64,000 nt of DNA from Escherichia coli (GTDB taxonomy: Bacteria; Pseudomonadota; Gammaproteobacteria; Enterobacterales; Enterobacteriaceae), in the NCBI RefSeq assembly GCF_036507355.1, contig NZ_AP027877.1; one strand, 5' to 3'. Shown here one piece after another: positions 6,205 to 29,655 of the stretch (position 1 is the first letter of the stretch; each line of letters starts with the position of its first letter). The position numbers and the translations under genes were made by a program. The notes below the pieces were generated by a model. The model was not told where the DNA came from. It worked only from the letters and a program-made list of their open reading frames with translations, and ran no database searches.

Positions 6205-7391
6205 CAGGTTTCCTCTGTCTCGGTTTCTTCCATTTCTTCGGGCACGTTTGAAATCTCTTTGAGCGCCATATTCAGTGGGGCAATAAAGGGATCTAACGCT
6301 TTTTCAAATGCCGTCAGGTTTACCAGTAGCCAGTCGATCATTTCAGGCCAGTTGGCTTCATCAAGGCTGATGGCCGGGCTGGCATAGGAAATTCGACACG
6401 ATTTTTTACCCGGCAGAGGTTCCCACTTAAGCGCATGGCCAAACGCGTTTTCAATTGCCTCTTTGCGTTCATGTAGCCAGTTAAAAGCAAAGGTATTGCT
6501 CTCTGCGGAAGCTTTGGCAATCCACAGCTCAACCCGAATCTCTTTTTTACTGAAAATCAGGTTATACGACACCGCGCTAATACCAGAGCCCGCACTGATC
6601 CAGTGATCGGTAGAGGGGCTGATATTGTTATATAAGTGGCAGGAGCTGGCTTTGAGGCGCTCCAGCATCTTTGTCCAGAAAGCTTTACGCATTAATTGGA
6701 CTGGCTTTACTCCGCCGCTGACGGATTGTTCTTCCGCCTCTTTTTGCGCCATACCGATCATGTAAGATTCTGCTTCCGGTGTGGGGATAACCTGACGGAT
6801 ATCAACGAATACATCGTCGTTGAACTTATAGGGTTTAACCTTAAAGCACTGTACCCGCAGACCAAATTGCATGAGCCACAGGGCAGTGTTGGTCACCTCT
6901 TTGCGAAAGTTGGCTGCGACCATGATGATTCGCTGTGTACGGCTCTGGTTGATTAAGGCTTCATCCAGCGTTTCATATTCGAGGAATTCAGCAAGCACCT
7001 CTGCCGCCGGGCGATTTTCCTCTGGGTCGTATTTATCCAGATAAAGCTGGAAGATCTGCAGAATTTGCTCTTTACGCAGGTTGGCGCAATACCCGGCATA
7101 TTTGAGCGCTTGCCAGACGACGTCGCGACCTGAATCATCGAGCTTATTCTCGATGATCACCAGATTGCCTTTTTTATCGATAGCCAGCAGGTCAAGGCGC
7201 TCTTTGGTGTCGTCAAAACCGGCGAACTCTTTCTGTATAATCAGTAGTTCATCGTCATTATCGCGAGTTAACGCTTGGGGATTCTGCGCCAGCCATTCCT
7301 GCAGATTGCCACGTTCGGTAAAACCAAGACTACTGAAAGAGACTTCCTGTAGGGAGTGTAAGCTGTTAGTCGGCGTATCAACTTTATACAT
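6204..7391 (-). CDS. PD-(D/E)xK (NucS/DUF91-like) nuclease-domain protein embedded between hsdS and hsdR (about 395 aa)
   Basis: Motif [21 protein letters not shown] resembles a restriction-endonuclease-fold D...ExK core. No Walker A, so not PrrC. Start and stop overlap hsdS and hsdR (translational coupling). Confidence 0.5.
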
Positions 7392-10468: not shown

Positions 10469-10800
10469 GTAAATCCTCGGGGTAGATCGCAGCGAAAGAG
10501 CAACCATGCCTTATCGCAAATTCAGTTTTGGAATGCAGTTCGCAAAATGATACCCGGTACACTTACGATTACAAATGCGCGGTATAAAGAAGTTTGCATT
10601 TGATCGGTGAATAATAGGAAACTCAGTCACTGTTTCGTCTGCAAAATCAGCCATTTCGCCTTCATACGTAGTTCTTCGGTTGAATAGTAAGGTCTATCAT
10701 GCTGCATCGAACGGTGATTTTGATGGATGTTGGAAGTGAGTAGCTGTACGTAATTTTTGATTAAAAGTAATCAAAATGTTGCCAATGGTTATGCTATCGT

Positions 10801-11724
10801 GTGTTTTTTGAATATATAACAGGTAAAACTATGTCCTGGCTTAATTCTGTCTTATTGGCGCTTACCTCGGTGCAACCTTATATGGTACCGGCAACCGTTA
10901 TCGGCCTCGTCAGTTTTGCATTCCTCTGTTTTATTTTCTTTTATTTTTTTAGAGCAGTTAAAATTATTAACGGCCTGAAAAAATATACTCAGTCAATTAA
11001 TGGCATCGAAAATAATGAGCCTGGTAATCAGCTTCAGCATCTGCAAAGTTTGTTTGTACAGCCTGAGTTAAAGCACGCCTGGAATGAATTCGAAGAATCG
11101 TTGCACTCACAATATGAACTGGAGGACGGGGAAGAGAAAATCGTCCGTATTAGGGCTACTGCACCGAGCGCCAGTTTCTTCTCGGAGCAACAACTGGTCG
11201 ATATTCCGCTGAACACCGAATTTTTCAAACACCTGCCCGGTATTCTGACCGGTGTGGGGATTATCGGTACCTTCTACGGTCTGATGATTGGTCTCAACCA
11301 CTTCGACCCCAGCACACCAGAGCAGGTCTCCAGCAGCGTCAATAATCTGCTTCGCGATGTGCTGTACGCCTTCCTCGGTTCAGCATTTGCGATTACGTTC
11401 TCTATCCTTATCACCTGGCTGGAGAAATTCTGTCTGGCGAAATGCTACAAATATCTGGAAAAATTCACCGCAGCTCTCGACGCCCTCTATGACAGCGGTG
11501 TTGGCGAGGAGTACCTTGCCTCACTGGTAAAATCCAGTAATGAAAGCGCGACCCAGGCACGCCATCTGAAAGAGAGCCTGGTTACCGATTTACGCGATAT
11601 GCTGCTGCATCTGGCCAACAGCCAGAAAGTGGAAAACGAGCGGCTAGCGACCACCCTCAGCACCACCTATCGCGAAACAGGACAACAGTTTGCCGAGCAA
11701 GTCAGCGGTGCGATTGAAAACTGA
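10801..11724 (+). CDS. MotA/TolQ/ExbB-family proton-channel (stator-like) membrane protein (about 297-307 aa)
   Basis: Three predicted TM helices with TolQ/ExbB-like spacing. TM2 carries the family signature (LPGILTGVGIIGTFYG, compare TolQ GLFGTVWG). The stop codon TGA is formed by the first three bases of IS629, so the 3' end is disrupted or altered by the IS. Confidence 0.55.
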   Translation: MFFEYITGKTMSWLNSVLLALTSVQPYMVPATVIGLVSFAFLCFIFFYFFRAVKIINGLKKYTQSINGIENNEPGNQLQHLQSLFVQPELKHAWNEFEESLHSQYELEDGEEKIVRIRATAPSASFFSEQQLVDIPLNTEFFKHLPGILTGVGIIGTFYGLMIGLNHFDPSTPEQVSSSVNNLLRDVLYAFLGSAFAITFSILITWLEKFCLAKCYKYLEKFTAALDALYDSGVGEEYLASLVKSSNESATQARHLKESLVTDLRDMLLHLANSQKVENERLATTLSTTYRETGQQFAEQVSGAIEN

Positions 11725-11775
11725 ACCGCCCCGGGAATCCTGGAGACTAAACTTCCTGAGAAAGAGGTAAACAGG

Positions 11776-12102
11776 ATGACTAAAAATACTCGTTTTTCCC
11801 CCGAAGTCCGTCAACGGGCAGTCCGTATGGTTCTGGAAAGTCAGAGCGAATATGACTCACAATGGGCGACAATTTGTTCCATTGCTCCAAAGATTGGCTG
11901 TACGCCGGAGACTCTGCGTGTCTGGGTTCGCCAGCATGAGCGGGATACCGGGGGCGGTGATGGAGGGCTCACCACCGCTGAACGTCAGCGTCTGAAAGAG
12001 CTGGAACGTGAAAATCGTGAACTGCGCCGCAGTAACGATATCCTTCGCCAGGCTTCCGCTTATTTTGCGAAGGCGGAGTTCGACCGCCTCTGGAAAAAAT
12101 GA
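11776..12102 (+). CDS. IS629 OrfA (helix-turn-helix transposase N-terminal protein)
   Basis: [23 protein letters not shown]...; IS3-family OrfA with a leucine zipper near the C-terminus. Confidence 0.85.
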
Positions 12103-12989
12103 TGCCACTGCTGGATAAGCTGCGTGAGCAGTACGGGGTCGGACCGCTATGCAGCGAACTGCATATTGCCCCGTCAACGTATTACCACTGTCAGCAACAG
12201 CGACATCATCCGGATAAACGCAGTGCCCGTGCGCAGCGCGATGACTGGCTGAAGAAAGAGATACAGCGCGTATACGATGAAAATCACAAGGTATACGGTG
12301 TGCGTAAAGTCTGGCGTCAGTTGTTACGGGAAGGTATCAGAGTGGCCAGATGCACTGTGGCACGTCTCATGGCGGTTATGGGACTTGCCGGTGTTCTCCG
12401 GGGTAAAAAGGTCCGTACGACCATCAGCCGGAAAGCCGTTGCCGCAGGCGACCGCGTAAACCGTCAGTTCGTGGCAGAACGACCTGACCAGCTGTGGGTG
12501 GCTGATTTTACTTACGCCAGCACATGGCGGGGCTTCGTCTATGTGGCGTTCATCATTGATGTGTTTGCCGGATACATCGTGGGGTGGCGGGTCTCATCGT
12601 CCATGGAAACGACATTCGTGCTGGATGCACTGGAGCAGGCGTTATGGGCCCGTCGACCGTCCGGCACGGTCCATCACAGTGATAAAGGTTCTCAGTATGT
12701 ATCGCTGGCCTACACACAGCGGCTTAAGGAAGCCGGATTACTGGCATCAACAGGAAGTACAGGCGACTCGTATGACAACGCGATGGCGGAGAGCATCAAT
12801 GGTCTTTACAAAGCGGAGGTAATACACCGTAAGAGCTGGAAAAACCGTGCAGAAGTGGAACTGGCCACACTCACGTGGGTGGACTGGTATAACAATCGAC
12901 GATTGCTGGAAAGGCTGGGCCATACTCCTCCGGCAGAAGCAGAAAAAGCTTATTATGCTTCCATCGGAAACGATGATCTGGCAGCCTGA
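12099..12989 (+). CDS. IS629 OrfB (DDE transposase; expressed by -1 frameshift with OrfA)
   Basis: IS3-family integrase/DDE core (WVADFTY... HSDKGSQY... DNAMAES); overlaps orfA in the -1 frame. Confidence 0.85.
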
Positions 12990-13153: not shown

Positions 13154-13999
13154 ATGTTACGTGGTTCAGAAAGAAAAGAAGCATTAGCCAGTCTCAAAAG
13201 TGCAACTAACCGTTATGAAGTACAGGCTAAAGACACCCAGGATGAGATCACTGCCCTCTTTCTGTTACGCCAGAAATGCAGTAAGGACCTGATTGCCCGT
13301 GGTGAAAATTTTGTTAATCGACTGGCGAATACACCGAAAGAGTTTGATAAATCCTGGAGCGAATTGAAAGCGGAAATCGCTGAATTTGATAACGTGGTGG
13401 AAAAACTGGAAGAAGAATACCGCGCATCACATATTGGTAAAGGAACGGCTGCTGCGGGGGTTGCCGTTGGGGCGGGGGTCGCCGCATTTGCCCCTACGGC
13501 TGCGCTGGCGGTCGCAACAACTTTTGGTACAGCATCCACGGGTACCGCTATTGCTACGTTAAGCGGAGCTGCCGCAACAAATGCAGCCCTGGCATGGCTC
13601 GGCGGCGGCGCACTGGCTGCGGGTGGCGGTGGCATGTCAGCAGGAAGCGCACTACTGGCTCTGGCGGGTCCAATAGGCTGGGGGATTGGTGCTGTAGGCA
13701 TCGCTGGCGGAACCTTACTAGCCCGTCGCAAAAACGGTAAAATCATTGATGAAGCACAACAGGAAGAGCGCCAGGTTCGCGCAAAAACCAGCGAACTTCG
13801 CGTGATGGAACGTGGTGCGCAAGAACTCAAGATGCTCACATCCGAGCACTATCATGGTACTGAAAGCATTATTGATGTGCTGGAAAAGGCTGCGCCTCAA
13901 GACTATTGCCAGTTTAATACCCATCAGAAAGATCAATTAGGGGCATTGATTAACCATATCAATGCATTATCAAAACTGATCAACAAGAAAATCCAGTAA
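13154..13999 (+). CDS. Hypothetical protein with central Gly/Ala-rich glycine-zipper membrane segment (281 aa)
   Basis: Helical N- and C-terminal regions flank a Gly/Ala-rich hydrophobic stretch of about 100 aa (GTAAAGVAVGAGVAAF ... GWGIGAVGIAGG). Its stop overlaps the next start (TAATG). Confidence 0.5.
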   Translation: MLRGSERKEALASLKSATNRYEVQAKDTQDEITALFLLRQKCSKDLIARGENFVNRLANTPKEFDKSWSELKAEIAEFDNVVEKLEEEYRASHIGKGTAAAGVAVGAGVAAFAPTAALAVATTFGTASTGTAIATLSGAAATNAALAWLGGGALAAGGGGMSAGSALLALAGPIGWGIGAVGIAGGTLLARRKNGKIIDEAQQEERQVRAKTSELRVMERGAQELKMLTSEHYHGTESIIDVLEKAAPQDYCQFNTHQKDQLGALINHINALSKLINKKIQ

Positions 14000-15444
14000 T
14001 GAGCATTAACCATAATACAGTTGGCGACCAGCTTATCGGCAGCGCGGTTAACGCCATTAATCAGACCCGCATTGATAATGAACTGTTAAAACTATCGCAG
14101 CAGGATCGTGCATTTGAGTTGGCTGGCGAACAAATGCAAAAGGTGCGTGATTTCATCGCGTCACCGGGTAACATCCTGGGCTCAATGAGCACCAAACACG
14201 GTGAAATTGCTGAGCAGGTAGAAGTTGGCGTGCGCAATGCTCGCCAGGCAATAGAAGAAAGGGTTCAGGATGCCTCTGATCTTAGCGCCACGTTTGACGG
14301 AGTGGGTCGAACCGCTCCGGCGGATTATATGATAGATGGCGTTGACGTGCAGTCAAAGTTTATCAACGGAGTTAATAATAACCTGAACCATGTCCTTCAG
14401 CACATGGAAACCTATCCCAATTTCACCCGGGGAGAATCCTTTTACCATATCCCCAAAGACTCCTGGCAAACGATTCAGGATGTTATTGATGGGAAGCCGG
14501 TGGAGGGCTTGAGCGAAAAAACAATACAGGCTATCAGGGATAAAGTTGCAGAAATTGAAAGTACAACGGGAAGATCCTTTAATGATGTCGTGCGTCCTGG
14601 AGTTTCTGATTACAAAGATGTTCAGTGGGGAAAAATTGACGAAACTCTTGATAAACATGATCAGGAATTAGCGGAACAGAACGAGGCAAAAAAAGCAGAA
14701 ATTATTGACGATCACCAACCCTCCCTAAGTGAAGGCATGCGTGCAACCGCAATGGGAGCCGCTTTCGGTGGAACCTTTGCTCTTGTAACAGGTATATATA
14801 GCAAATACCGTGACGGTAAAAATATATTTCGTGGAGATTTCAACAGACAGGACTGGCAGGATGTCGGCTTAGATACATTGAAAGGTGCCGCTATTGGCGG
14901 TGTATCCGCCGGAGCAATTTATACCCTGACCAATTATGCCTCTCTGGGAGCACCGTTCGCCAGCGCGCTGGTCACTGCCGCTAAAGGTGTAAGCAATCTT
15001 GCTCTCTCCTATCAGCGCGGTGAGATTAATGCTGATGAATTTACCGATCTTGGCCTTATCATCTGCGCGGAATCGGCCATCGTTGGCGCAATGTCTGTCG
15101 CAGGTCAGGCAATCATCCCTGTGCCTGTTTTGGGGGCATTGGTTGGTTCTATCTCAGGGAAGTTTATGGTTACCGTAGCTAAAAATCTGGACAGTAAAGC
15201 ACGCCAATTGCTGGCGAAAAAAATGGAGCAATTTACATGTCGCTTAAGTGAGATTGAGCAGAAAGCACTCAACCGAATTTTGAACGAGTTCGCGGCGCTG
15301 GGTGAGCTTACCGCAGCTGCATTTAGCGTGGAAAACAATCGCCGGTTGCTGGAAGCAAGCATCACGCTTGCCCAAGCCCACGGTGTTGAAGAGGCGAAGA
15401 TAATCAAAAATGCGGATGATCTTGACACATTTATGATGGCGTAG
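13999..15444 (+). CDS. Hypothetical protein with C-terminal glycine-zipper membrane segments (481 aa)
   Basis: Soluble N-terminal region of about 240 aa, then several Gly/Ala-rich hydrophobic segments (GAAFGGTFALVTG, GAAIGGVSAGAIYT, AIVGAMSVAGQAII). Translationally coupled to the upstream gene. Confidence 0.5.
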   Translation: MSINHNTVGDQLIGSAVNAINQTRIDNELLKLSQQDRAFELAGEQMQKVRDFIASPGNILGSMSTKHGEIAEQVEVGVRNARQAIEERVQDASDLSATFDGVGRTAPADYMIDGVDVQSKFINGVNNNLNHVLQHMETYPNFTRGESFYHIPKDSWQTIQDVIDGKPVEGLSEKTIQAIRDKVAEIESTTGRSFNDVVRPGVSDYKDVQWGKIDETLDKHDQELAEQNEAKKAEIIDDHQPSLSEGMRATAMGAAFGGTFALVTGIYSKYRDGKNIFRGDFNRQDWQDVGLDTLKGAAIGGVSAGAIYTLTNYASLGAPFASALVTAAKGVSNLALSYQRGEINADEFTDLGLIICAESAIVGAMSVAGQAIIPVPVLGALVGSISGKFMVTVAKNLDSKARQLLAKKMEQFTCRLSEIEQKALNRILNEFAALGELTAAAFSVENNRRLLEASITLAQAHGVEEAKIIKNADDLDTFMMA

Positions 15445-15480: not shown

Positions 15481-18003
15481 ATGCTACAGATAATTGGTGC
15501 GTTAATTTTACTGGTAATCGGTTTTGTTATTATAAAAGCGTTGTTTAAGGCATCTCTCAATATTCTAGGTGTGATATTAGGATTGGGTGCATTGATTGTT
15601 GCAGGCCCACCTTTATTGGCGGGCTATATTGTAGAGCGCGTAACCTATGCGCTTCACTCACGTTGGCTGCTGGGTGTACCTCTTGCCATAGCAGGAATGG
15701 TGATTAGCTTTATGTGGGGACTTGATGGTAAACATATTGCCTACGAAGCCTATTCATTTGATTCAATGAAGTTTATTTTAACCGCTGCATTTGCCAGTGG
15801 CCTGCTTGCAGTACCTGTACAAACCAAGGCTATTCTACAAAACGGGCTTATACCAGCCGATATCAATGCCAAACTTAAAGAGTATTATTGCTGTTTTTAT
15901 ACGTCTTACTTTTTGATGGCCTGCTCTGCGGCTACACCGTTTATAGCCTGGCAATATAATATCTCATCTTCACTGATGTGGTGGACAGGATTGCTATACT
16001 GGATAGCAGCCTTACTGACACAGTTCTATGCGGCAAACCAAATTCAGGAACTCAAGAAGTTAACTAATGCCATCAATACAGGGTTAAATGAGCAAAAAGC
16101 GATCAATAACCAACTTTGGCTGACGGAACTAAAAGAAGGAAGTAACCTCTCAGCAGAATTCGTAGAGACTATCTATCTTAAGTTGGTCTCACAGCATATT
16201 TTTCAGGGCGATACTCGAGAGCAGGATCTGGCTGGTGAAAACTGGCTTTTAAATGATGCCTGGTATGAAAGAAAGATGGCTGAATTTAATGAGCAGTTAA
16301 ACAGTAAAATTGTACACTCATCAGATGAGCTAAGAAGCCTTTTTGGTAATAGGCTGAATTTACCCTCTGCTGCGAATGATGATCTCCTGAACCGTTATCT
16401 TGATGGTGGGAACTATTATTCTTTTTCGGATGGTCGAAAATTTGTCTCGTTTCACTATGTCGACGAGCTTTGTACCTGCACTTCATGCGGTTTGAGCGAG
16501 ATTAAAAACGCAAAACACCAGGACGGTTGTGGGAGCCAGGAATGGTATTGCTCTGATATTTGCCGGGAAACGGAAAAACTCTGCATTGAAATTCACAAGC
16601 GACCACAGGCTGAATTTATTTCCAGTGCAGCAACAAACGGTCTGATTCTCATGACGCTCCCGGAGGCCTGGAATACTAACGAAAAAATGTTTGCAGTGGG
16701 AGGACAAGGACATGGTTTTGCAGCCGAACGGGGAAATCATCTTACTGACAAAATCCAACTAAAAGATGCACATATTCTCGGTGATGATAATGCGAAAAAT
16801 GGTGCAGACAGGCTGGTTAACGGTTCAGAGATTCAGACCAAATACTGTGCAACCGCTGCACGTAGCGTCGGTGCTGGTTTTGACGGACAAAACGGTAATT
16901 ATCGCTATTATGACAGTAACGGAACCCCAATGCAGTTAGAGGTTCCGAAAGACCAGTATTCGAAAGCGCTTGAAACGATGGAGAACAAAATTCGCGATGG
17001 CAAAGTCCCCGGCGTTACCGATCCTGCAGAAGCCACAAAACTTGTACGTCAGGGACACCTGACTTATAGCCAGGCACAAAACATTACTAAGTTTGGCACG
17101 TTCGAATCTATCACTTACGACATTGCGGAAGGATCTATCATCAGCCTCGCAGCTGGAGGTATCAGCTTCGGTCTGACAGCTTCTATTTTCTACCTCAATA
17201 CCGGCGATCGTAAGGCTGCGTTGCAAACGGCAGCAATACAGGCAGGTAAAACATTTACCCGCACACTGACAGTTTATGTGACGGTACAGCAATTACACCG
17301 TATCAGTGCCGTTCAGGGGTTACTTAAAAATATTGATTTTGCCGCTGCCAGCCCGACAGTTCGTAATGCGCTTCAACAGGGAGTCGGAGCTAACAATCTC
17401 AACTCCCTTAACAAGATGATGCGTGGCACACTGGTTACCTCTTTCGCACTGGTCGCCGTGACCACTGGTCCGGATATGATCAAAATGGTGCGAGGTCGTA
17501 TTTCTGGGGCACAGTTTATAAAAAATCTGGCAGTTACTTCATCTGGTGTGGCTGGGGGGGCAATTGGTTCTATTGCTGGCGGAATGATGCTTAGTCCATT
17601 AGGTCCTTTCGGTGCTTTAGCAGGACGCGCAGCTGGTGGCTTGTTAGGCGGTATGATTGCCACAGCGATTTCCAAAAAAATAGCGGGTGCACTGGTTGAA
17701 GACGACCGAGTAAAAGTGCTGGCTCTCATCCAGGAACAGGTTACATGGCTTGCAACAAGTTTCATGCTTACAGCACACGAACTTGAAAACCTGAACGCGA
17801 ATCTGGCAACAGTAATTGACCAAAAAACCCTGGAGGTTATCTTCGCCGCAAAAGAGCAAGACCGAGCAACGGCCAATATGCTGATTAAACCACTTGTAGT
17901 AAGTGTGGTTAAGCAACGACCGGTCCTGAGCTATGAACAATCGCAAATCTGCGAAATGGTCGATCAGCTTGATACATCGGTTTCATTATCTGCTGTTGCA
18001 TAA
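15481..18003 (+). CDS. Hypothetical large membrane protein (840 aa): N-terminal multi-TM domain, Cys-rich zinc-ribbon-like segment, C-terminal glycine-zipper region
   Basis: About six N-terminal hydrophobic helices; Cys cluster CTCTSCGLSEIKNAKHQDGCGSQEWYCSDICRETEKLC; C-terminal Gly-rich segment SSGVAGGAIGSIAGGMMLSPLGPFGALAGRAAGGLLGG. Confidence 0.5.
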   Translation: MLQIIGALILLVIGFVIIKALFKASLNILGVILGLGALIVAGPPLLAGYIVERVTYALHSRWLLGVPLAIAGMVISFMWGLDGKHIAYEAYSFDSMKFILTAAFASGLLAVPVQTKAILQNGLIPADINAKLKEYYCCFYTSYFLMACSAATPFIAWQYNISSSLMWWTGLLYWIAALLTQFYAANQIQELKKLTNAINTGLNEQKAINNQLWLTELKEGSNLSAEFVETIYLKLVSQHIFQGDTREQDLAGENWLLNDAWYERKMAEFNEQLNSKIVHSSDELRSLFGNRLNLPSAANDDLLNRYLDGGNYYSFSDGRKFVSFHYVDELCTCTSCGLSEIKNAKHQDGCGSQEWYCSDICRETEKLCIEIHKRPQAEFISSAATNGLILMTLPEAWNTNEKMFAVGGQGHGFAAERGNHLTDKIQLKDAHILGDDNAKNGADRLVNGSEIQTKYCATAARSVGAGFDGQNGNYRYYDSNGTPMQLEVPKDQYSKALETMENKIRDGKVPGVTDPAEATKLVRQGHLTYSQAQNITKFGTFESITYDIAEGSIISLAAGGISFGLTASIFYLNTGDRKAALQTAAIQAGKTFTRTLTVYVTVQQLHRISAVQGLLKNIDFAAASPTVRNALQQGVGANNLNSLNKMMRGTLVTSFALVAVTTGPDMIKMVRGRISGAQFIKNLAVTSSGVAGGAIGSIAGGMMLSPLGPFGALAGRAAGGLLGGMIATAISKKIAGALVEDDRVKVLALIQEQVTWLATSFMLTAHELENLNANLATVIDQKTLEVIFAAKEQDRATANMLIKPLVVSVVKQRPVLSYEQSQICEMVDQLDTSVSLSAVA

Positions 18004-19072: not shown

Positions 19073-22000
19073 ATGAGATTCCACCCTGAAGGGCCTTCCA
19101 TACCCGATATCCTCTTAGAACGCTGTGATACAGGTCGAGTTGTATTTCTCTGTGGCGCTGGGGTTTCATTACCTTCAGGGATGCCAAGCTTTGTAGAGCT
19201 TACCCAGCATGTAATTGAATACTTTGACCCACCACACGATTCAGAAATCATGGCAGCATTTCGCCCATGGCTTCACGACCAATCTTCAGCTAATGTCCCT
19301 CTCGACCAAATTTTCAACCTCCTACATCTGGAATATGGCAAGGATGAGGTGAATGCTTTGGTATCAAAGCGTCTGGGGACTGCAAGAACTGATATAGAGA
19401 TTGGACGTGAGCATGCCCTGATTAAAAGAATTTCCTCAAATCAGAGTGGTGTCCCACAGATTGTCACAACGAACTTTGACCGACTGTTCGAGGATAACCA
19501 AGCGCAAGATAATCTAACTCGATATGTGCCGCCAGCTTTCCCAAATCTGAATTTCGGTTCGACAATTGAGGGAATAACATATCTTCACGGCCGCCTGGTC
19601 GACGAAAATGCTGTAAACCATCCTTATGTGCTGAGCAGTGCAGACTTTGGAAGAGCATATCTTTCAGAAGGATGGGCGACCAATTTTATTAAGCTTCTTC
19701 TGGAACGATACATCGTTGTTTTGGTCGGTTATCAGGCAGAAGACCCACCAGTTAAATACCTCCTTCAGGGTCTCAATCATGATGGCCAGTATGATCGTTC
19801 CAGACTTTATGCATTTGATCGCGGCCTTGCCGAGGATATCGAAGCCAAATGGCGTGACAGAGGAGTTACAGCCATAGCCTATTCCGATCATCCAGCTCTT
19901 TGGAAGACTTTGGAAGCATGGGCTGAGCGAGTAGATGATCCACGTCGATGGCGAGCTTCTATTATCGCTAAAAGCCAGCAAGATCCGAAAGTTCTAGCAC
20001 CGTATGAACGTGGTCAACTTGCCCATATACTTCGCACTACACAAGGTGCGAAATTGTTCTCTGAAGCTGTTCCTCTTCCCCATCCAGAGTGGCTTTGTGT
20101 GATGGATGCAAATATTCGGTCAGCCAAACAGAAGAAAAGATACTACGAACTTGATGACAATGATGCAGAGACCTTCGATCCACAAGAAGCTTATGGGCTT
20201 GATGACGATCTGCAAGATATCGCTGATGATGAACGTAAACGTGGAGTGAGTAACGATAATCTCCTTGAATAGCGCGACGAAGATGATAACCCGTCAGATT
20301 ACCATCGCTTGGCTGGATGTTTGGAGACAATGCCGAAACGATTGAGCCATCTCATGGTCTGGTTCTGCAAATCTCTTGATAGCCCCGTGATGGCTTGGTG
20401 GGCTATCCGAAAAATCAGTATTCATCCTCTACTACTACAAAATATTGAACGCAATATTGAGCATTCAACATCAATCCACAAACGCGCTCGTCAACTGTGG
20501 GGCTTAATTCTTGAACATCATAAAGATCCCCGCAATCGTCGTTATGACGTCGATTGGTACGACTTAAAAGCTCGAATTACAAAACAAGGCTGGACAGCTG
20601 GTGTCTTACGAGAATTTCGTAGGGTAATGACACCCCGATTGGAAAAGAAGTTGCCGTATGGATTGGGTGAAGTCAGACCGCCAAGCGGCTCCTGGGAGGA
20701 AATTCAGTTCAGCGAATTTGGCCAATTTGAAGTTGTGTTCACCGAAAGACATGATGACGATTTAGACGTACCTGACAATGTATTACTACAAGTATTTAAT
20801 GCCTTAGAAGCGCAAATAATAATTGCCTCCGGAATGTTAGAGGATATTGATACGCACTACTTTCCAAGCCCAAGTTGTTATCCAGAACGTGCGGTTGAAG
20901 GAGAAGAACATTTCGCGAAAGGTGCGGAGGTATTAACTTGGTTTGTCCAACTTTTAGACCGAGTTGTTATGAAGTGGCCAGAATTGGCTAAGGCATAAGT
21001 AACAACTTGGCCAGTTAAGGAGCCATTTTTCTTCCGAAAGCTTAGACTTTATGCATTCAGTAAAAAAGGCGTCTTTGAGGCTGACCGTGTTGCCGAAGAG
21101 CTTTTGTCTTTGGATCAAAGTGGATTTTGGGACACAAATATTACCCGCGAACTTCTTTTTCTGCTCACTGATCGTTGGGAAGAATTCTCGCAAGAAAATC
21201 AGAATCGAATTATAGAGCATATATTAACCGGCCCGAACCATTTACTTTATTTGTCTGAGGAAGACATTCCAAAAGAAAGAGAGATATTAGCAGCTAGATA
21301 CGCTCGTTATCTCGAACTAAACGGCTGTAAAGTAACCACTATTCATCGTGACCAACTAACTGCGATGATTAAAAGAATTCCTGACTGGAATGATGGCTGG
21401 GCTACATCTGTTGTCATCAATTGGGGTTCACGGACAGGTTGGGTTCGTACAGACGAAAAGCCAGATATAATCTTAGATCTTCCAGCAAACGAAATAATCC
21501 CAAAAGTAAAAGAGATACTTAAACGAGAGGATGATAGCTTTACTAGTAGGCAACCCTTTGTCGGATTGATAAAAGAAAATCCGCGTAAAGCTTTGTCTGC
21601 ACTCGCTATTGCAGGGAGAGGCGGTGATTACCCTAAGGAATTTTGGTCGCCAATGATAAGTGAGTTACCTATAGATCTTAAACCAAGGGTGAGACGAGTA
21701 TTCCTGAACCGAATTGTGCGATTGCCAGTTACAGCTTTGGTCGAGTTACGACATACATTAAGTAACTGGCTTGAACAAAATTTAGCTGCGACTCTTGAAT
21801 TTGATGAGGATCTCGGGTGGGCAGTTTACGATCATGTCATAGCAGGCATACTGAGTGGTGGCGCCAGTGCAATACGGAGTAGTTTCGGAGAAGTTATCCG
21901 GAATGGAGAAGTTGTAATACAGTCTCGCCGCACGTTCAGTCATGCAATCAATGGTCCTGTCGGTAAATGTACTCAAGCGCTTTTTCAAGCAATGCCAAGT

Positions 22001-22882
22001 GAAGAGAAAAAAGCTGGTTCGCTTATTCCTTACTCTATTAAGTCTCGTATTGAACATCTTTTTACTGCACCAGGAGAAGGAGCGGACCACGCTATAGCTA
22101 TAACGTCTCGCAATCTAAATTGGCTAATGTTTGTTGATCCTGCATGGGTAAAGGAATGGCTTATACCCCTTTTGGATTTAAAACATCCTGCAGCAGAACC
22201 AGCATGGAATGGTTATCTTCAGTGCAATGCTATGCCTTCAATTGCAGTAGCTGAACTTATTAAACCAGCTTTTCTTAACCTTATCCCTTGGATCGAATCT
22301 CTTTCTTGGGAAAAAGATTATTCAGTTCGAGCTTCGCAATGGCTTGGCTTAATGAGAATGTTTCACCCTGATGAGCCCTCCAGTCCTTCCAGGAATGAAA
22401 TGCGCTCCATATTACGAGCATTATCTGACGAGGCTCGAAATCGTTTTATTTCCTGGTTAGGATTGGTCGGGCAGAAAAACGAGAGTGGCTGGGTTAAGTA
22501 TGTGATCCCATTAATCAGAGAGGACTGGCCCAAAGAACGCCAATATAGAACCACGAGCTCTGTAAAAGCATGGATTGGTTTACTTGACGATACTGGCGAT
22601 AAGTTTCCGGAGGTTTACGATTCAGTAAAAACATACTTAGTACCAATCGAGACAATTGATCATTTGTTCTACAGATTCACTCGGGAGCTCGGTGGTAAAG
22701 GAGCAATTGCGGCTATTTTTCCAGAAACCACGCTTGATTTAATGGACAAAATAACACCACTGATATTCACGCGTACATCAGGAGAGCTGCAGAAGATTCT
22801 TGAGCTAATTGAAGATACAGATACAAGTCTGATCAAGGATTCTCGGTACTTACGGCTTATTGCACTGGTTGAGAAAAATTAG
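19073..22882 (+). pseudogene. Large SIR2-domain protein gene (about 1,270 codons) interrupted by two in-frame stop codons
   Basis: N-terminal SIR2-like motifs (VVFLCGAGVSLPSGMPSF; IVTTNFDRLFE). Track ORFs 19007-20272, 20309-20998 and 21104-22882 all lie in the same frame, separated only by TAG at 20270-20272 and TAA at 20996-20998. Confidence 0.65.
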
Positions 22883-23040: not shown

Positions 23041-23769
23041 TTATTGAAATTGCTCAAATATACCATGCAACCCAATAAATTTTATTTTTAGTGCAGGATC
23101 ATGCCTTAGAACAGTCTCAAGTGAGTTCCGCTCATAAATTATTGATTGTGCTTGTATTGAGCCGTTCCATGAAGGCAAAAGCAGTAAAGCAGATGTTTCC
23201 AAATCAATACCCCACCAATCGTTAACATAGCAATTTAAAAAATCAACAAGAGCCTTAATCGCAATAAAAGCATCTTTTTCGGTATATGTTTCAGGATCGA
23301 GGGATATACCTGATATATTACTTTTAGCTTGCTCGGAATTAATATTAGACTGGTGTTGATAAGCAATTTTTCCTTCACCCGGTTTAGTTTCTATTGTATC
23401 AGTGAAAATTTTAATCTTAGGATGCACCAATGCATTTCGTTGTGCTATTAATTCTTTTATTATTTGTGTTTGAGTGGTTCCACGAGGTAAAGACATGTCT
23501 TTATGCCATTGAAGAGTATAGTCAAATTTATCAAGTGAAGAGAACCTGTCAATTTGATCTTTTAACTTTTGCGTTATTTCTATAGAAGATAAAAATGAGT
23601 TAGCTGCAGCCTCAATAGCGTAGTTAATTGAAAGTACACTTGATTTGGCAAGTGTTTTTTTGATGTGTGATTTTTTTGTTGCAGCTGATAATTCATAAAG
23701 AGTTATTGCATCAGAAAAAAGCTCAAAAAAGCTGTTCTTGGTTATTTCAACTTTTCTTTTCACACGCAA
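23041..23769 (-). CDS. Hypothetical protein (242 aa), third gene of the uncharacterised operon
   Basis: ORF in a low-GC region 84 bp downstream of the 504-aa gene on the same strand; no recognisable motifs. Confidence 0.45.
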   Translation of the reverse strand: MRVKRKVEITKNSFFELFSDAITLYELSAATKKSHIKKTLAKSSVLSINYAIEAAANSFLSSIEITQKLKDQIDRFSSLDKFDYTLQWHKDMSLPRGTTQTQIIKELIAQRNALVHPKIKIFTDTIETKPGEGKIAYQHQSNINSEQAKSNISGISLDPETYTEKDAFIAIKALVDFLNCYVNDWWGIDLETSALLLLPSWNGSIQAQSIIYERNSLETVLRHDPALKIKFIGLHGIFEQFQ

Positions 23770-23852
23770 CCCTCTGCATAAAAAATAAAATCATATAGAC
23801 AGAATACAATTTCCTATAATCTTTACATTCTACTAATTGTGGATATAAATGG

Positions 23853-25367
23853 CTATCGAGAATAAGAACTGGGTTTAGGAAAACCACCTCTGACGACGAC
23901 AACAACAATTGCAACTTGAGATTGACCTGTTGGATGAGTGAATACTTCAATATCATCCTCTATTACTCCCACCGGCGCTGATTTTGACGTTGATTCCAGA
24001 ACAACCAAAATACCGATACGCTTACCTAATCCAATGGCATAAGCTGCTGTTTGATCGAAATATTTTTGAAAATCCTTGGGAAAAAGAACCTTATTATTTT
24101 CAACTTTTAGTTCTATCGGAATGTCTTCAAATGTGAGATCCGTTATCCCGCCAGCAGCCTCTGGATGGCCTTGTAATTTCTCGCCAATCTCATTCCTACT
24201 TCTAAGCATTTCGGCTATTTTACGCTGAAATTTTTGCTCTGATGTGCCAGCAATAAATAAACTAGCTTTAAGAGCTTGTGCTGCAACATTTCCTAAGCCG
24301 CCAAGTATAACCATTGTATTAGCAATGTCATCTGAGTGTAATCCAGGGAAAGCTCGTAATATGTTACGAATTTTTATAAGATGCCTATCGACGTTTGAAA
24401 ATCCAGTTAATGGAGCTTGAGCGGAATCACTCCCTTCAAGTAGTAAGCGCCTATGTCCTACGATAGCAATATTTTGGCAATTACTTAAATTGTCAAACTC
24501 GGCAGCATATAGGAATTCGTAAGGTCTCGAGCCAAATGAATTTGCCACTTCCAAGACGACACGACCGATCCCCTTCAGTGTGAAGGGGCCTTCCCCCTCT
24601 GGTTTCTCAAATCTAAAATCAGGCAACCAGTCTCGCTCACGAGCATCAATTGTCACTGGCTTTAATGAGAGGAAATTTGCACTTTTTGGCCAATTTGAAA
24701 CCCTGACCTCTATGTTAAGGTCATAAGCCGTACCCGGCTTAAGATAATTCCATTGCTGAGCTGGTTCCCCATCAATATCAAACTTTAGAAATGCAACTGT
24801 CGATTCTTGTGTTTTATTCTCTTTTGTCTCTTTACTAGATATTCCTTGCCTAATCTCCTCAATATTTTTATCGCGAAGATTTGCGAATAAGAGTAGTGGC
24901 AATGACCAGCTTGTTAACTGGTCTTGTATTTGTTTTAATGAATCTAATTTACTGATTGAACGGACTTGCTCTATAAATTCATTAAATTGTTTGTTCTCCG
25001 AGAGACTCGTCGTCATGTCGATCTCTGATGCTTTTAATTGTGCTGAATTTAAAAACCTTTGAGCATCAGTCTCAGCATTACGTATAGCATGTTTCCACTC
25101 AGCTAGAGTTACAAATATAGTCATTGCTATATAATATGCACGATATTGATCTTCAACATATCCCTGACCGAGCTCATCGAGCGTTTCATTGAGCTTTTGA
25201 CACGCTTCTTTAAGTTTCACCAAGTCATTCGGAATGGACTTGAGTGCACCATCCAACGCTGCTGCAATCTCAACCCTCGGAGAAAAAGCTTGGCGGAAAA
25301 TCTCGAAATTTGGCTCGTTCTTCATATTCTTTCTCCAACTCAGCCGTAAGACCATTCCATTTTTCAA
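23853..25367 (-). CDS. Hypothetical protein (about 490-504 aa) with possible C-terminal PD-(D/E)xK nuclease-like motif
   Basis: C-terminal segment GGITDLTFEDIPIELKVENNK fits a D-x8-E-x-K pattern. The start is uncertain: the first ATG overlaps the upstream gene by about 98 bp. Confidence 0.45.
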   Translation of the reverse strand: MKNGMVLRLSWRKNMKNEPNFEIFRQAFSPRVEIAAALDGALKSIPNDLVKLKEACQKLNETLDELGQGYVEDQYRAYYIAMTIFVTLAEWKHAIRNAETDAQRFLNSAQLKASEIDMTTSLSENKQFNEFIEQVRSISKLDSLKQIQDQLTSWSLPLLLFANLRDKNIEEIRQGISSKETKENKTQESTVAFLKFDIDGEPAQQWNYLKPGTAYDLNIEVRVSNWPKSANFLSLKPVTIDARERDWLPDFRFEKPEGEGPFTLKGIGRVVLEVANSFGSRPYEFLYAAEFDNLSNCQNIAIVGHRRLLLEGSDSAQAPLTGFSNVDRHLIKIRNILRAFPGLHSDDIANTMVILGGLGNVAAQALKASLFIAGTSEQKFQRKIAEMLRSRNEIGEKLQGHPEAAGGITDLTFEDIPIELKVENNKVLFPKDFQKYFDQTAAYAIGLGKRIGILVVLESTSKSAPVGVIEDDIEVFTHPTGQSQVAIVVVVVRGGFPKPSSYSR

Positions 25368-27843
25368 TTAAGTCATTATAGGGTTCGCAAACACTTATGG
25401 CATGTTCAATGCTAGCTGCTTCTGTAACTAAAGCAGCCTTAAGTTTCCATTGTGTATTTCTTTCATCATTTGGAATTTCTTCCAGTAGTTCCTTTAAACA
25501 AACATTTGCAGTTACGTTATCACCACACTTGCTTAACGCAGCCACGTACACTAATGCTTCAATAAATTGTTGAGGTTTAAATGGTTTCAGAGCATTGAAT
25601 GCTTTTTGGAGATCGTCTTTACAATTTCGAAGCTCATTATGTGGCGCTCTTAATATCACTGAGATGCAGTCATCAATAGAAATACTGCGAGTATACTCAT
25701 CCTGAATTGCTTTGAGTGCGACTTTGACAAAACCGGGAATATCATCAAAATGAAAACGCAATCGATTGATAGCATCATAAAGTGCACTTCCTTCTAAAAT
25801 TAATAATATATTAGAAAGAAGCAATCCAATTTTCCCCTTTCTCTCTTCATCTGATAAGCAAAGAGAAGAAAAAACGTCAATGCATTCTACAATGAAATTA
25901 TCTTTTTTATCTTGTTGAATATAATAGCAAATTAGATTCCATAGCCGGGATCTCACAAGTCCCCGTTTCTCCTCAGGAAAAGATCTACGGCTCAAAGCGC
26001 GAACAGCATACTGATGCACCATAACATATTGATCTAATAGCAAGACTGAATATGCTTCGAAGAATAAATCTGGGAAATTCTTCACTAAATCATAGGGAAC
26101 ATTTTCCCACGCTTGTACGGCACGTGCTCGAATCAATGTACTCTCATCCATAAGAGCACGATACCAATCGGAGAGCACTAGTGTTAGGCTGTCAATACCA
26201 GTTAATAACTTAGAAACATGGGCAATCATGTTCCCACGCATTTGAGTTTGTTCTTCTGGTAAGCTTCTATAGAGATGAAGAAAATCATCGATTCCTTCAC
26301 TCCCTCTAGATTTAGCTCCAATCGCAGCCCATTCAATCAATGCACCCTGTAAGCCATCAATAGCATTACGCTTATTACTTTTATCTAAATGATCTAGAAA
26401 ACTCTCATTTATTTCTATGATTTTTTCTTTATTCAACGCCTCAAATTTCTCGCTTAGCGTTGCAGCCGCTCCGATCAAATCGTCAAAATTATCAACTGCA
26501 AGCTCAGCAAATTCGTCCCAAGAGTGTCTAAAGAATTGTCCTGCATCATCCATGCTATCCTCTGGATTTTCCACAGCAGCCCAGAGCAAACGCCTAAAAG
26601 CTATTTTTTGTGTCTTTCCTGTTTTACTTTTTTTTCTATAGTTATTTCGCAGTACAGATCTGTAAGCTCTATTGGCCTCATGTCTCCCAATATCATCTTT
26701 GTCAGCAAGATAGGATTGAATAACTTTATCGCTTTCATCGGGAAATCTATCTAAGTATTTCGTAGCAGCCTCCCGAAGAAAGAAAAGAATGCTGCTATCT
26801 CTCCGCTCCTCCGGGAGTAGAGTCCGTCGACGCATCAGCTTAGCAAATATACTTCTAATATGTCTTAGAAGCAGCTCATCATCATCCGATGCAATAATTA
26901 TCTCAATAGCAAATTGAAATTTTCCCCGGTGAGTATCTTTTATGTATTCATCAACAACATCACAGATATCAGCTTGTCTTTTTTTAAAAAGTGACTGAAT
27001 GGGGCCTTTATTAAGTACTTTTCGCTCAAATGTGCCAATCATCATTCCAGGAGGAGATTCAACAGCCATTCTAACAAAGTGGTAAAGGACTTTTAAGAAA
27101 TCATCTTCAGATAGATTCTCTGCTTCCAAGAGGATTGCTTCTATAGCTGGTGGACAATATTCGAAGTTGTTTATTAAATATACTGAAATTGCCAGTTTTT
27201 CCGCTTGTGATAATTCAGTTCTTATTAAAGCTTTTGCTGCTGGCATTGAATATGGTAATTTCTCATGTAACACTGCAGGCAACAAGTGTTCAATTATTTT
27301 ACTTGTAAATGTCTCAGGTGCCAGATTAGCAAGTTGTTCCAAACGGGGATCGTTGTTCTCTATATCCTCTTGATCGAGTTCATCAAGCAAATCAAGCACA
27401 AACGTTTCTTCTAGAGTAAGTGAAAGACGTAATACTGCTCGTTCTTGTTGTCTATTGAGCTGCTTCTGCTTTCTCTGCCTTTCTTCTTCTTTGCGAGCCA
27501 AATTTCGTTCTTCGGCAGATTTTTCTCTTGGGCCTACAAACTCTAAAATATTGGGAAATCCCACCGGAACCCGTTGATTACAATGTTTACAGTTCTGTTT
27601 ATAGAAGCTGTAAACCGAGTCTTCCAGCAGCCAGCTAAGCATTGAACTTTGCTTAACAAATTTGCATTGAACTCCCATGTGACCAATGGGTAACCCTGTT
27701 TCAGCCTCAATCATGCCTCTCCCCTCTGATCGAATGAATTCAGAGTGAGAACACCAGTTACTAAGTAGGTGTACAGCACGGAGATTTCGTTGACCAGCTT
27801 CGATTGCCTCTTCAAATCTTTTTTTATCTTCAAAATCATCCAT
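25270..27843 (-). CDS. Hypothetical large protein (857 aa) with N-terminal Cys/His cluster; first gene of the operon
   Basis: N-terminal WCSHSEF...GHMGVQCKF...CKHCNQ could be a zinc-binding module; the rest is predicted helical with charged linkers. Preceded by an AT-rich 400-bp region. Confidence 0.5.
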   Translation of the reverse strand: MDDFEDKKRFEEAIEAGQRNLRAVHLLSNWCSHSEFIRSEGRGMIEAETGLPIGHMGVQCKFVKQSSMLSWLLEDSVYSFYKQNCKHCNQRVPVGFPNILEFVGPREKSAEERNLARKEEERQRKQKQLNRQQERAVLRLSLTLEETFVLDLLDELDQEDIENNDPRLEQLANLAPETFTSKIIEHLLPAVLHEKLPYSMPAAKALIRTELSQAEKLAISVYLINNFEYCPPAIEAILLEAENLSEDDFLKVLYHFVRMAVESPPGMMIGTFERKVLNKGPIQSLFKKRQADICDVVDEYIKDTHRGKFQFAIEIIIASDDDELLLRHIRSIFAKLMRRRTLLPEERRDSSILFFLREAATKYLDRFPDESDKVIQSYLADKDDIGRHEANRAYRSVLRNNYRKKSKTGKTQKIAFRRLLWAAVENPEDSMDDAGQFFRHSWDEFAELAVDNFDDLIGAAATLSEKFEALNKEKIIEINESFLDHLDKSNKRNAIDGLQGALIEWAAIGAKSRGSEGIDDFLHLYRSLPEEQTQMRGNMIAHVSKLLTGIDSLTLVLSDWYRALMDESTLIRARAVQAWENVPYDLVKNFPDLFFEAYSVLLLDQYVMVHQYAVRALSRRSFPEEKRGLVRSRLWNLICYYIQQDKKDNFIVECIDVFSSLCLSDEERKGKIGLLLSNILLILEGSALYDAINRLRFHFDDIPGFVKVALKAIQDEYTRSISIDDCISVILRAPHNELRNCKDDLQKAFNALKPFKPQQFIEALVYVAALSKCGDNVTANVCLKELLEEIPNDERNTQWKLKAALVTEAASIEHAISVCEPYNDLIEKWNGLTAELEKEYEERAKFRDFPPSFFSEG

Positions 27844-28246
27844 TTAGATAACACCCTTATAAGGAACATGTACTCATCTAAAATGCTGTTACCGGATTAT
27901 TATACCTAAAACAATGAATGCTGTGTATTATGAAATGTGATATAAGTCAATTAGTTACATATAAAAACCAACTCACATCCAAAAGGATAGTATTTCGAGG
28001 TTTGTAGCATCATTAAATGTGAACTTATTTATCGCCCCCTCAAGTTAACTAATAAATAAGTTATAATTTACATATACTTCTGGAATTTAGAAACCTTATA
28101 TCTAATAGTTGAGTAAGTTAATAATCAACTTGAGTGTGATTCATAAAAAAAATAATTATTATTTTCAGCCCCTCCATTATGGAGGAGCAATAATAGTATA
28201 GTTTTCCTGTATTCCTAACGATCCAGTTAGGCTTAGAGAAATCTAA

Positions 28247-29443
28247 TTATGAAGCACTCCTGAGAGCAACCCTTCCAACTTTATCAATATAATCCGCATA
28301 CCACTGCATCATCTCTCTCCTGCCTTCCAAATACAGCGCATGGTTGTACGTCCCGCGAATCGCATTCTTATCGACATGCGCAAGCTGGGTTTCAATCCAT
28401 GCGGTATTGAACCCTTCCTCATGCAAAATCGTACTCATCGTGTGGCGGAAACCATGCCCCGTTACCTTCCCCGTGTACCCAATCCGCTTAAACACCTGAT
28501 TAATACTCGCTTCGCTCATTGTTTTGCGGGGATCATTCCTCCCAGGAAACACCAGAGGATATTGCCCAGACATCACTTTGAGCTGCTGTACGATCTCCAG
28601 CGCTTGGGTAGAGAGGGGCACCAGGTGAGGCCGTTTCATCTTCATGCGCTCTGCAGGTATTTCCCACACCGCTTTTTCAAGATCAAACTCACTCCAGAAA
28701 GCACCTCGAAGCTCACCGGTGCGAACCCCCGTAAGGATCAGCAAACGTGCGGCAAGAACAACCAGCGGGCTGCCTGTATAGCCAGAAAGAGCTTTAAAGA
28801 AATCTGGTAACTCCTCAACGGTAAGGAAGGGATAATGCTTCGATTCATGCCCTGACATCGCGCTGGTTAGATCCGCAGCCGGATTGTATTCCGCACGACC
28901 GGTAACTATGGCGTAGCGAAAGACTTCGCTGCAGCGCTGGCGAACTTTCTTGGCCTTCTCTGTCGCACCACGGCTTTCCATTCGACGCAGTACATTCAAC
29001 AGAACAAGAGGCTTAATTTCATTGACTGGCTGCTGACCGATATAGGGAAAAATATCTTTATTTAAAGCTTCGATAATGTCCGATGCATACCCTTCTGACC
29101 ATCTGCTCACCTTCGTACCGTGCCACTCAAGCGCCACAGACTGGAACGTATTATTGAGCTGCACATCACGAACCAGCTTTTCTTCTTTCTTGGCAAACGA
29201 TGGATCGATACCCTCGGCCAGCTTTTTCTTGGCTTCATCGCGTAGTGCCCTCGCTTGAGCAAGGGACACTGCCGGATAAACGCCAAAAGCCATACGCTTC
29301 TCTTTTCCATTGAAGCGATATTTCATTCGCCAGTATCGAGAACCAGAGGGAACGACTTCAAGATACAAACCAGCACCATCTGCCAGCTTATAGGCTTTCT
29401 CTCTGGGTTTAGCTGCATCTACCTGTCGCGCATTTAGCTTCAT
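28247..29443 (-). CDS. int: P4-type tyrosine integrase (about 398 aa)
   Basis: N-terminal MKLNARQVDAAKP...LYLEVVPSGSRYWRMKYRF typical of P4-family integrases; C-terminal catalytic region with HGFRHT and a downstream Tyr; lies beside a tRNA fragment. Confidence 0.8.
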   Translation of the reverse strand: MKLNARQVDAAKPREKAYKLADGAGLYLEVVPSGSRYWRMKYRFNGKEKRMAFGVYPAVSLAQARALRDEAKKKLAEGIDPSFAKKEEKLVRDVQLNNTFQSVALEWHGTKVSRWSEGYASDIIEALNKDIFPYIGQQPVNEIKPLVLLNVLRRMESRGATEKAKKVRQRCSEVFRYAIVTGRAEYNPAADLTSAMSGHESKHYPFLTVEELPDFFKALSGYTGSPLVVLAARLLILTGVRTGELRGAFWSEFDLEKAVWEIPAERMKMKRPHLVPLSTQALEIVQQLKVMSGQYPLVFPGRNDPRKTMSEASINQVFKRIGYTGKVTGHGFRHTMSTILHEEGFNTAWIETQLAHVDKNAIRGTYNHALYLEGRREMMQWYADYIDKVGRVALRSAS

Positions 29444-29606: not shown

Positions 29607-29655
29607 TGGTGCCGATAATAGGAGTCGAACCTACGACCTTCGCATTACGAATGCG
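29607..29655 (-). other. 3' fragment (49 bp) of a tRNA-Thr(CGU) gene; attachment-site remnant
   Basis: Reverse complement reads ...CGCATTCGTAATGCGAAGGTCGTAGGTTCGACTCCTATTATCGGCACCA: anticodon stem-loop with CGT, T-arm, acceptor 3' strand and CCA. The 5' half of the tRNA is absent, so this is not a functional gene. Confidence 0.7.

Follow-up and report, generated by a model that had tools for sequence, protein, structure and literature searches.

The window, a stretch of 64,000 nucleotides of Escherichia coli DNA, carries three open reading frames that all lie on the minus strand and at their longest encode 857, 504 and 242 aa, as the original prediction had described. The first gene, oloA (25270-27843), encodes an 857-aa protein that matches the OloA model of PADLOC. 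The second, oloB (23853-25325), encodes a 490-aa match to the PADLOC OloB model. The third, called gene 3 here (23041-23763), encodes a 240-aa HEPN protein with an R109-x4-H114 motif. The longest reading frames of oloB (23853-25367, 504 aa) and gene 3 (23041-23769, 242 aa) both begin with TTG; on the basis of homologues and the PGAP annotation, the start of oloB was moved to the ATG at 25325 and that of gene 3 to the GTG at 23763. The GC content is 34-39% over the three genes and about 50% for the window, in agreement with the low-GC setting proposed earlier.

The first 56 nt of oloB are shared with the 3' end of oloA, and this overlap is kept in all 15 loci compared. Gene 3 is separated from oloB by an AT-rich spacer of 89 nt (23764-23852, minus strand), which contains an AGAGGG Shine-Dalgarno sequence. 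The proposed three-gene operon thus holds for oloA and oloB, and gene 3 stands apart from it. A weak -35/-10-like site (23855-23827, minus strand) with a promoter score of 9/12 is found at the spacer, and a terminator scan of the 89-nt gap found no terminator. oloA is preceded by a non-coding, AT-rich leader of 403 nt, in which neither a credible small ORF nor an Rfam match was found; small ORFs and RNA families were likewise not found around the locus as a whole. The best promoter match upstream of oloA is a sigma-70-like site (27899-27927, minus strand; TACACA-17-TATAAT, 10/12). These promoter matches are to the consensus only, and the number of such sites in the region equals that expected from shuffled sequence, so that the promoter and terminator scans carry little weight.

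The three genes are located, as predicted, downstream of a P4-type tyrosine integrase (28247-29443, minus strand; 398 aa), which matches the NCBIfam PRK09692 integrase domain at 3.4e-90 and is named 'integrase arm-type DNA-binding domain-containing protein' by PGAP. This integrase had been called tRNA-associated. No intact tRNA is found within the window by ARAGORN. A 49-nt 3' fragment of tRNA-Thr (29607-29655, minus strand) is present as a remnant of the att site, and four further E. coli genomes carry this island at an intact tRNA-Thr beside proA. The tRNA association of the integrase in the window is true only historically. On the other side, gene 3 faces a convergent SIR2 defence gene on the plus strand (19250-22882), which is the SIR2-domain neighbour noted earlier and is identified as dsr1. 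It is a pseudogene, the reading frame of which is broken by two nonsense substitutions, W341* and Y583*. The type I restriction-modification system (3070-10507) does belong to the same island, but it is about 12.5 kb from the three genes and not adjacent to them.

The original prediction had found no known family for any of the three proteins. For two of them this is incorrect. Judged by their sequences, the first two genes encode the two proteins of the validated anti-phage system Olokun, OloA and OloB, and this family membership is directly supported by matches to both PADLOC models over nearly the full length of the proteins. Residues 43-854 of OloA align with positions 17-576 of the 596-position profile PDLC03925 (7.5e-77, 258 bits), and residues 22-504 of OloB align with positions 2-551 of the 556-position profile PDLC03926 (5.5e-58, 195 bits). 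A PADLOC scan had been among the checks proposed with the original prediction; it identifies Olokun at once, and the suggested novelty is lost, while the placement of the genes in a defence island was right. The arrangement is also that of Olokun, a same-strand operon of two genes in a defence island with oloA first. The name Olokun reportedly comes from Millman et al. 2022, although it does not occur in the preprint text of that paper.

None of the three proteins has a significant match in Pfam, NCBIfam or PHROGs. The same is true of the individual members of the OloA and OloB alignments when scanned against Pfam, where one OloA member matches PDS5 at 1.3e-2, a value that is not significant, and PDB sequence-profile searches with OloA, OloB and the gene 3 product found no meaningful relatives. 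The absence of Pfam and NCBIfam names is the only observation in favour of the idea that the family matches are misleading and that the genes are non-defence cargo, either metabolic or phage-structural. This idea is effectively refuted by the strength and length of the OloA and OloB matches, by the lack of any match to a PHROG or a phage genome, and by the neighbours, which everywhere are defence systems, including Gabija, Dsr1, retron Ec48, a KAP NTPase and type I restriction-modification.

The Olokun of the window differs from the PADLOC profiles in the size of its proteins. OloB is about 70 residues shorter, and OloA is about 250 residues longer and therefore represents a divergent subtype of the system. 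This long-OloA subtype is unusually well conserved across distant phyla, with 55-70% identity among Gamma-, Alpha-, Delta- and Epsilonproteobacteria, Chlorobi and Calditrichia. A Cys/His cluster had been noticed at the N-terminus of OloA, and its residues C31, H55, C60, C85 and C88 do not vary among 15 orthologues. Possibly the cluster binds zinc and has a part in sensing or in the binding of DNA, and it offers a concrete target for mutagenesis in Olokun. It is a further difference from the Pseudomonas system PfOlokun, for which the accessible part of the preprint makes no mention of such a cluster (bioRxiv 10.1101/2025.07.10.664194).

Like its counterparts, OloB has a helical domain at the N-terminus and a D…ExK motif in the C-terminal domain. 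The predicted PD-(D/E)xK motif TDLTFEDIPIELK is borne out by conservation: 20 orthologues with identities of 65-88% all have D396, E405 and K407 (GGITDLTFxDIPIELK), and in the structural model the ExK lies on a predicted beta-strand that is followed by a helix and another strand. The C-terminal part of OloB, residues 376-503 with the D/ExK motif included, also matches the C-terminal ~130 positions of a PADLOC model for the Lamassu protein LmuA (PDLC03853, 5.9e-14). The remainder of OloB, however, is unrelated to LmuA, and neither LmuB (SMC) nor LmuC is present as a partner.

The nuclease assignment agrees with the preprint on the purified Pseudomonas system, where OloB is a PD-(D/E)xK nuclease, OloA is adaptin-like, and the two proteins of PfOlokun form a 2:2 complex (bioRxiv 10.1101/2025.07.10.664194). 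According to the same preprint, Olokun cleaves the DNA of T7, SECphi17 and SPO1 in vitro and spares E. coli DNA. By analogy, we infer that the large, helical OloA with its Cys/His cluster would form a 2:2 complex with OloB, in which a helical N-terminal domain would precede the PD-(D/E)xK nuclease, and that upon infection this complex would cleave phage DNA and leave host DNA intact.

The small protein encoded by gene 3 had been described as having no recognisable features, and here the original prediction was mistaken. The predicted structure (pLDDT 88.8) has the four-helix up-and-down HEPN fold, supplemented by a beta-hairpin and extra C-terminal helices, and its structural neighbours include the HepT toxins of HEPN-MNT (MntA-HepT) systems, which are ~100 residues shorter. 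In the motif R109-N-A-L-V-H114, both the arginine and the histidine are invariant among 43 homologues, down to 39% identity. The fold and the motif make the gene 3 product a putative RNase, most likely a dimeric and metal-independent one that would stay silent until triggered and would then, like an Abi system, arrest or kill the infected cell. Against Pfam, including HEPN_AbiU2, HEPN_RiboL-PSP and DUF86, the protein has no match at E <= 0.001. The best result over the 43 family members is HEPN_RiboL-PSP at 5.8e-3, and seven of the 43 match this family at E<0.1; because these matches are insignificant, the names given to some of the homologues in UniRef are weak labels. Distant members carry no PADLOC or NCBIfam name, and no phage-encoded homologues were found. 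At 50% identity the family falls into 425 clusters, most of them of single-domain proteins 220-260 aa long. With this assignment, the names OloA, OloB and HEPN-domain protein can be given to three 'hypothetical proteins' in the RefSeq genomes of E. coli, Serratia and Yersinia.

Single-gene HEPN proteins are known from abortive infection, namely AbiU2, AbiV, AbiD/F and AbiJ (PMC3710099). Gene 3 is similar to them in that it encodes a stand-alone protein of ~240 aa, the sole recognisable feature of which is the HEPN fold with Rx4H, and in that copies of it occur in defence and toxin-antitoxin islands. It differs in that no match to the Pfam families HEPN_AbiU2, HEPN_RiboL-PSP or Abi_C reaches significance. 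Two single-gene systems of Vibrio, Esos, a HEPN protein of the V. cholerae superintegron (10.1101/2024.07.02.601686), and HNPBCG_15845, a HEPN-AbiU2 cassette of V. mimicus (10.64898/2026.03.17.712381), are comparable by description: gene 3 of V. parahaemolyticus is also a single-gene integron cassette, placed between ~120-nt attC-like repeats. A tentative proposal, which we regard as rather doubtful, is that gene 3 is the first member of a family, as yet without a name, of stand-alone HEPN proteins of the anti-phage, abortive-infection type, spread as a one-gene module in integron cassettes, in toxin-antitoxin and defence islands and in integrase islands. The gene is only 720 bp long, and alone it is a cheap candidate for defence-system discovery.

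The HepT toxins among the structural neighbours of the model, together with a solo copy of gene 3 that sits between HicAB and RelB/ParE modules, could also suggest that the HEPN protein is the toxin of an addiction module that stabilises the island and has no role in phage defence. This reading is very improbable. Neither in the window nor in 13 other contexts is there an adjacent MNT nucleotidyltransferase gene or any other conserved neighbour. The gene is found alone in integron cassettes and in an Enterobacter hormaechei island from which oloAB has been deleted, and therefore it is tolerated without a dedicated antitoxin. The deletion in E. hormaechei is clean, with codon ~22 of oloA running directly into the final ~8 codons of oloB, and gene 3, which is 95% identical, is intact. 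A separate proposal, that gene 3 is a toxin neutralised by OloAB, was rejected on account of the intact gene in this island.

The relationship of gene 3 to oloAB was assessed by the distribution of the genes. Gene 3 is found beside oloAB in five loci only, in all of which OloB identity is at least 80%: the window, the locus L008, and those of Serratia bockelmannii, Yersinia proxima and S. proteamaculans. Twelve loci with the same Olokun subtype (55-79% identity) have no gene 3. Conversely, homologues of gene 3 (41-77% identity) occur without oloAB in nine loci from eight taxa or metagenome contigs, which are Budviciaceae, Alkalimonas, Shewanella (two different sites), Pseudoalteromonas, P. viridiflava, V. 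parahaemolyticus and two metagenome contigs; no conserved neighbour common to these solo loci was found. In total, the trio is incomplete in 12 loci with Olokun and in at least 10 with gene 3. The conserved co-occurrence to be anticipated of a three-gene system is thus largely absent, and the trio is confined to a close clade of Enterobacterales. The genomic independence of gene 3 is directly observed. The copies linked to oloAB form one clade nested within the solo copies, and on this sequence evidence the solo state is ancestral and widespread and gene 3 is no obligate partner of Olokun.

Within the Enterobacterales clade the three genes nevertheless have a common history. Gene 3 diverges in parallel with its neighbours (97/87/80% for gene 3, 97/88/83% for oloA and oloB), its strand is kept, and the spacer to oloB is 89-91 nt long and partly conserved in sequence in the five trio loci. 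Together with the lack of a detectable terminator between oloB and gene 3, these features make co-transcription and a functional link possible in this clade. They would also be expected if the HEPN protein were a third component of an Olokun variant, either a subunit or a second effector serving as an RNase back-up, that is bound or activated by OloAB. HEPN genes are indeed often embedded as a second layer in DNA-targeting defence operons (PMC3710099), and the trio of L008 is kept together even without Dsr1. We nonetheless consider such a three-component Olokun variant unlikely. It is at odds with the ancestral and widespread solo state of gene 3, with the 12 loci in which the same subtype is a two-gene unit, and with the E. 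hormaechei deletion, by which gene 3 was left untouched. Dsr1 is co-conserved with the block to the same degree, at 81-90% identity; it is a known autonomous system, and therefore co-conservation alone implies no functional link. In addition, the Olokun systems that have been validated and purified consist of two genes (bioRxiv 10.1101/2025.07.10.664194).

The distribution is better accommodated by two separate units, oloAB of Olokun and an autonomous HEPN gene, carried side by side by an island with a P4-type integrase, and this we take to be probably correct. The HEPN gene would be a single-gene module that was captured once beside oloAB in an Enterobacterales lineage. Since that event the two units, mostly together with Dsr1, would have been passed on as one block. 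The locus is a genuine defence locus and mostly an ordinary one, a known two-gene Olokun next to a separate HEPN gene, and current concepts are unchanged by these findings. In Enterobacterales, where the two units are adjacent, the HEPN protein could possibly provide a second layer, directed at RNA, in cases where the DNA nuclease has been evaded. Natural controls for the two units exist in the loci with all three genes, in those with oloAB and no gene 3, and in the island where gene 3 outlived the deletion of oloAB.

The three minus-strand reading frames of the original prediction are present where it had placed them, in DNA that is low in GC as it had also held (34-39% against a background of about 50%). 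The RefSeq annotation of genes identical to these, together with the length of every homologue, corrects two starts. The middle gene begins at the ATG at 25325 and encodes 490 residues; the small gene, gene 3, has its GTG start at 23763, preceded by an AGAGGG ribosome-binding site, and its product has 240. The large gene (25270-27843) overlaps the middle one (23853-25325) by 56 nt, and an AT-rich gap of 89 nt separates the latter from gene 3 (23041-23763). The statement that none of the products belongs to a known family does not hold for the first two. In PADLOC-DB, the 857-residue protein matches OloA (PDLC03925, 7.5e-77, residues 43-854) and the middle protein matches OloB (PDLC03926, 5.5e-58, residues 22-504 of the 504-residue frame), the last ~130 residues of the latter also matching the C-terminal part of an LmuA model (5.9e-14). 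Searches of Pfam, NCBIfam, PHROGs and PDB sequences returned nothing for either protein, which accounts for their 'hypothetical protein' labels and for the failure to place them from the sequence. Judged by these profile matches, the two genes are Olokun, so that two of the three are already known as a named and validated system.

The proposed nuclease motif of the middle protein, TDLTFEDIPIELK, is confirmed: its D, E and K, which are D396, E405 and K407 of the 490-residue OloB, are invariant in 20 orthologues. The Cys/His cluster noticed in the large protein is equally real. C31, H55, C60, C85 and C88 do not vary among 15 orthologues (58-96% identity), and a zinc site may be built from them. 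With an OloA that exceeds the PADLOC OloA profile by about 250 residues, the system is a divergent subtype; this long-OloA form with its conserved cluster is a modest novelty. The subtype is well conserved far afield, with 55-71% OloB identity, the pair being found in Marinobacter, Geomobilimonas, Smithella, Sulfurospirillum, Sulfuricurvum, Dinoroseobacter, Chlorobiaceae and Calditrichia. OloB proteins of identical length and 61-71% identity in very distant phyla imply that the subtype either spread widely by horizontal transfer in recent times or is under strong constraint.

Olokun is a two-gene anti-phage system validated by experiment. A preprint of 2025 (10.1101/2025.07.10.664194) describes a Pseudomonas homologue that forms a 2:2 OloA-OloB complex of ~278 kDa, in which OloB carries a PD-(D/E)xK nuclease domain. 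In vitro it degrades the DNA of T7, SECphi17 and SPO1, spares E. coli genomic DNA and nicks plasmid DNA; mutation of the nuclease site abolishes complex formation.

Gene 3 belongs to a different family. Its homologues fall into 45 clusters at 90% identity. A profile search widens the family to 425 clusters at 50% identity, most of which are proteins of 220-260 residues with a single domain. No PADLOC or NCBIfam family was found for the homologues or for any distant member tested. The protein contains the HEPN signature Rx4-6H as R109-NALV-H114, with R and H both invariant, and its lower-listed structural neighbours include YutE, AbiA-CTD, Csm6, Cas13b, LsoA and AbiV. Since the signature is present and the Pfam HEPN families give no significant match, gene 3 represents an unnamed, solo HEPN family, the second modest novelty of the locus. 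Precedents, compared by description, are two HEPN cassettes of one gene each that act against phages: Esos (10.1101/2024.07.02.601686) and an HEPN-AbiU2 cassette of V. mimicus (10.64898/2026.03.17.712381).

A search outward from gene 3 recovered the 857+490+240 trio only in one metagenome contig (87% identity). Elsewhere the homologues occur without oloAB: in Budviciaceae (77%) flanked by genes for a helicase-PLD protein and a KAP NTPase, in Alkalimonas after an AAA_21/DUF4435 gene, in Pseudoalteromonas, at two different sites in Shewanella, in P. viridiflava, on one contig between HicAB and RelB/ParE, and on one after a retron Ec48 effector. No conserved neighbour common to these contexts was found. 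In V. parahaemolyticus (L012, 6000-13000) the homologue is one cassette of the chromosomal superintegron array, bracketed by ~120-nt attC-like repeats that recur every 460-1270 nt; a neighbouring cassette codes for a protein resembling HEPN_Swt1. When 100,044 species genomes were scanned outward from oloB, 14 loci emerged, among which only those of Serratia bockelmannii (97%), Yersinia proxima and S. proteamaculans (80%) have gene 3 behind oloB. Gene 3 was not found at ten Olokun loci of 55-71% identity, nor at two of 75% and 79%, one of which has an integrase after oloB and the other Gabija, then oloAB and an unrelated downstream ORF. With so few loci carrying the trio, and oloAB and gene 3 mostly found apart, the claim of a three-gene system fails. 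In a neighbour-joining tree the five trio-linked copies of gene 3 form one clade nested among solo copies, which points to a single capture event.

It is improbable that these linked copies serve a clade-specific, three-component Olokun. The spacing and strand of gene 3 relative to oloAB are conserved, it diverges in parallel with them, the gap behind oloB holds no terminator, and HEPN genes in general tend to be placed in defence operons that target DNA (PMC3710099). Against this, the convergent Dsr1 gene has been kept along with the block in those Serratia and Yersinia loci, at 81-90%. Dsr1 is a known autonomous single-gene system, and its equal co-conservation weakens the argument that gene 3 is an Olokun part. 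The four-gene block of oloA, oloB, the HEPN gene and convergent dsr1, kept at 80-97% across genera, looks like a defence 'cassette' moving as a unit on integrase islands. The co-conservation argument is further weakened by Enterobacter hormaechei RHBSTW-00844 (NZ_CP056156.1, 5009-11288), which has the same island at the proA/tRNA-Thr hotspot with oloAB precisely deleted, codon ~22 of oloA being fused to the final ~8 codons of the oloB frame. Gene 3 (95% identical) is the sole intact gene there, the integrase being frameshifted and dsr1 interrupted by IS3; it is thus tolerated and kept without OloAB. The record is a 361-kb 'plasmid' that carries the chromosomal core genes frsA, crl, phoE and proBA and may therefore be a chromid or a misassembly.

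The best-supported reading, considered quite likely, is that of two separate modules. OloA and OloB would form an OloA2-OloB2 complex that cuts phage DNA through the PD-(D/E)xK site of OloB. Gene 3 would be a one-gene HEPN module, by analogy with the HEPN Abi proteins and HepT probably a dimeric RNase, triggered by infection and leading to growth arrest.

The predicted defence locus is borne out, the Olokun genes lying within one large defence island at 3-29.5 kb of the window. It begins with a type I R-M system, hsdR (3070-6204) and hsdS/hsdM (7384-10507), between which the PADLOC candidate PDC-S11 is wedged (411 residues, 6204-7439, minus strand, 3.5e-173). At 10801-12989 (plus strand) follow a truncated ZorA1 (307 of ~729 residues) and, ~375 nt downstream of it, an IS3-family transposase gene; they mark a decayed type I Zorya system. 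The plus-strand genes PDC-M09A (13154-13999) and PDC-M09B (13999-15444) make up the PADLOC candidate system PDC-M09, of which an 840-residue plus-strand ORF without a family (15481-18003; weak PDC-M09B-like match, 5.8e-5) may be a third component. Then come arsC, the dsr1 pseudogene (19250-22882), the HEPN gene, oloB, oloA and the integrase (28247-29443).

The window is chromosomal E. coli DNA. It contains no intact tRNA, and the att core does not recur within it. At 29607-30600 the island adjoins ycgV, and tRNA-Thr is present only as its 3' 49 nt, as in E. coli ET826 and ET881, which match the window at 22.8-30.7 kb with 99.5-99.6% identity. The integrase island is matched at 99.9-100% in four further E. 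coli strains. An intact tRNA-Thr beside proA is its position in four E. coli genomes besides the window, ET826 and ET881. The difference in location indicates that the island inserted at a secondary site or that the chromosome was rearranged. Complete E. coli genomes rarely have the whole block: 6 do, out of 5,426.
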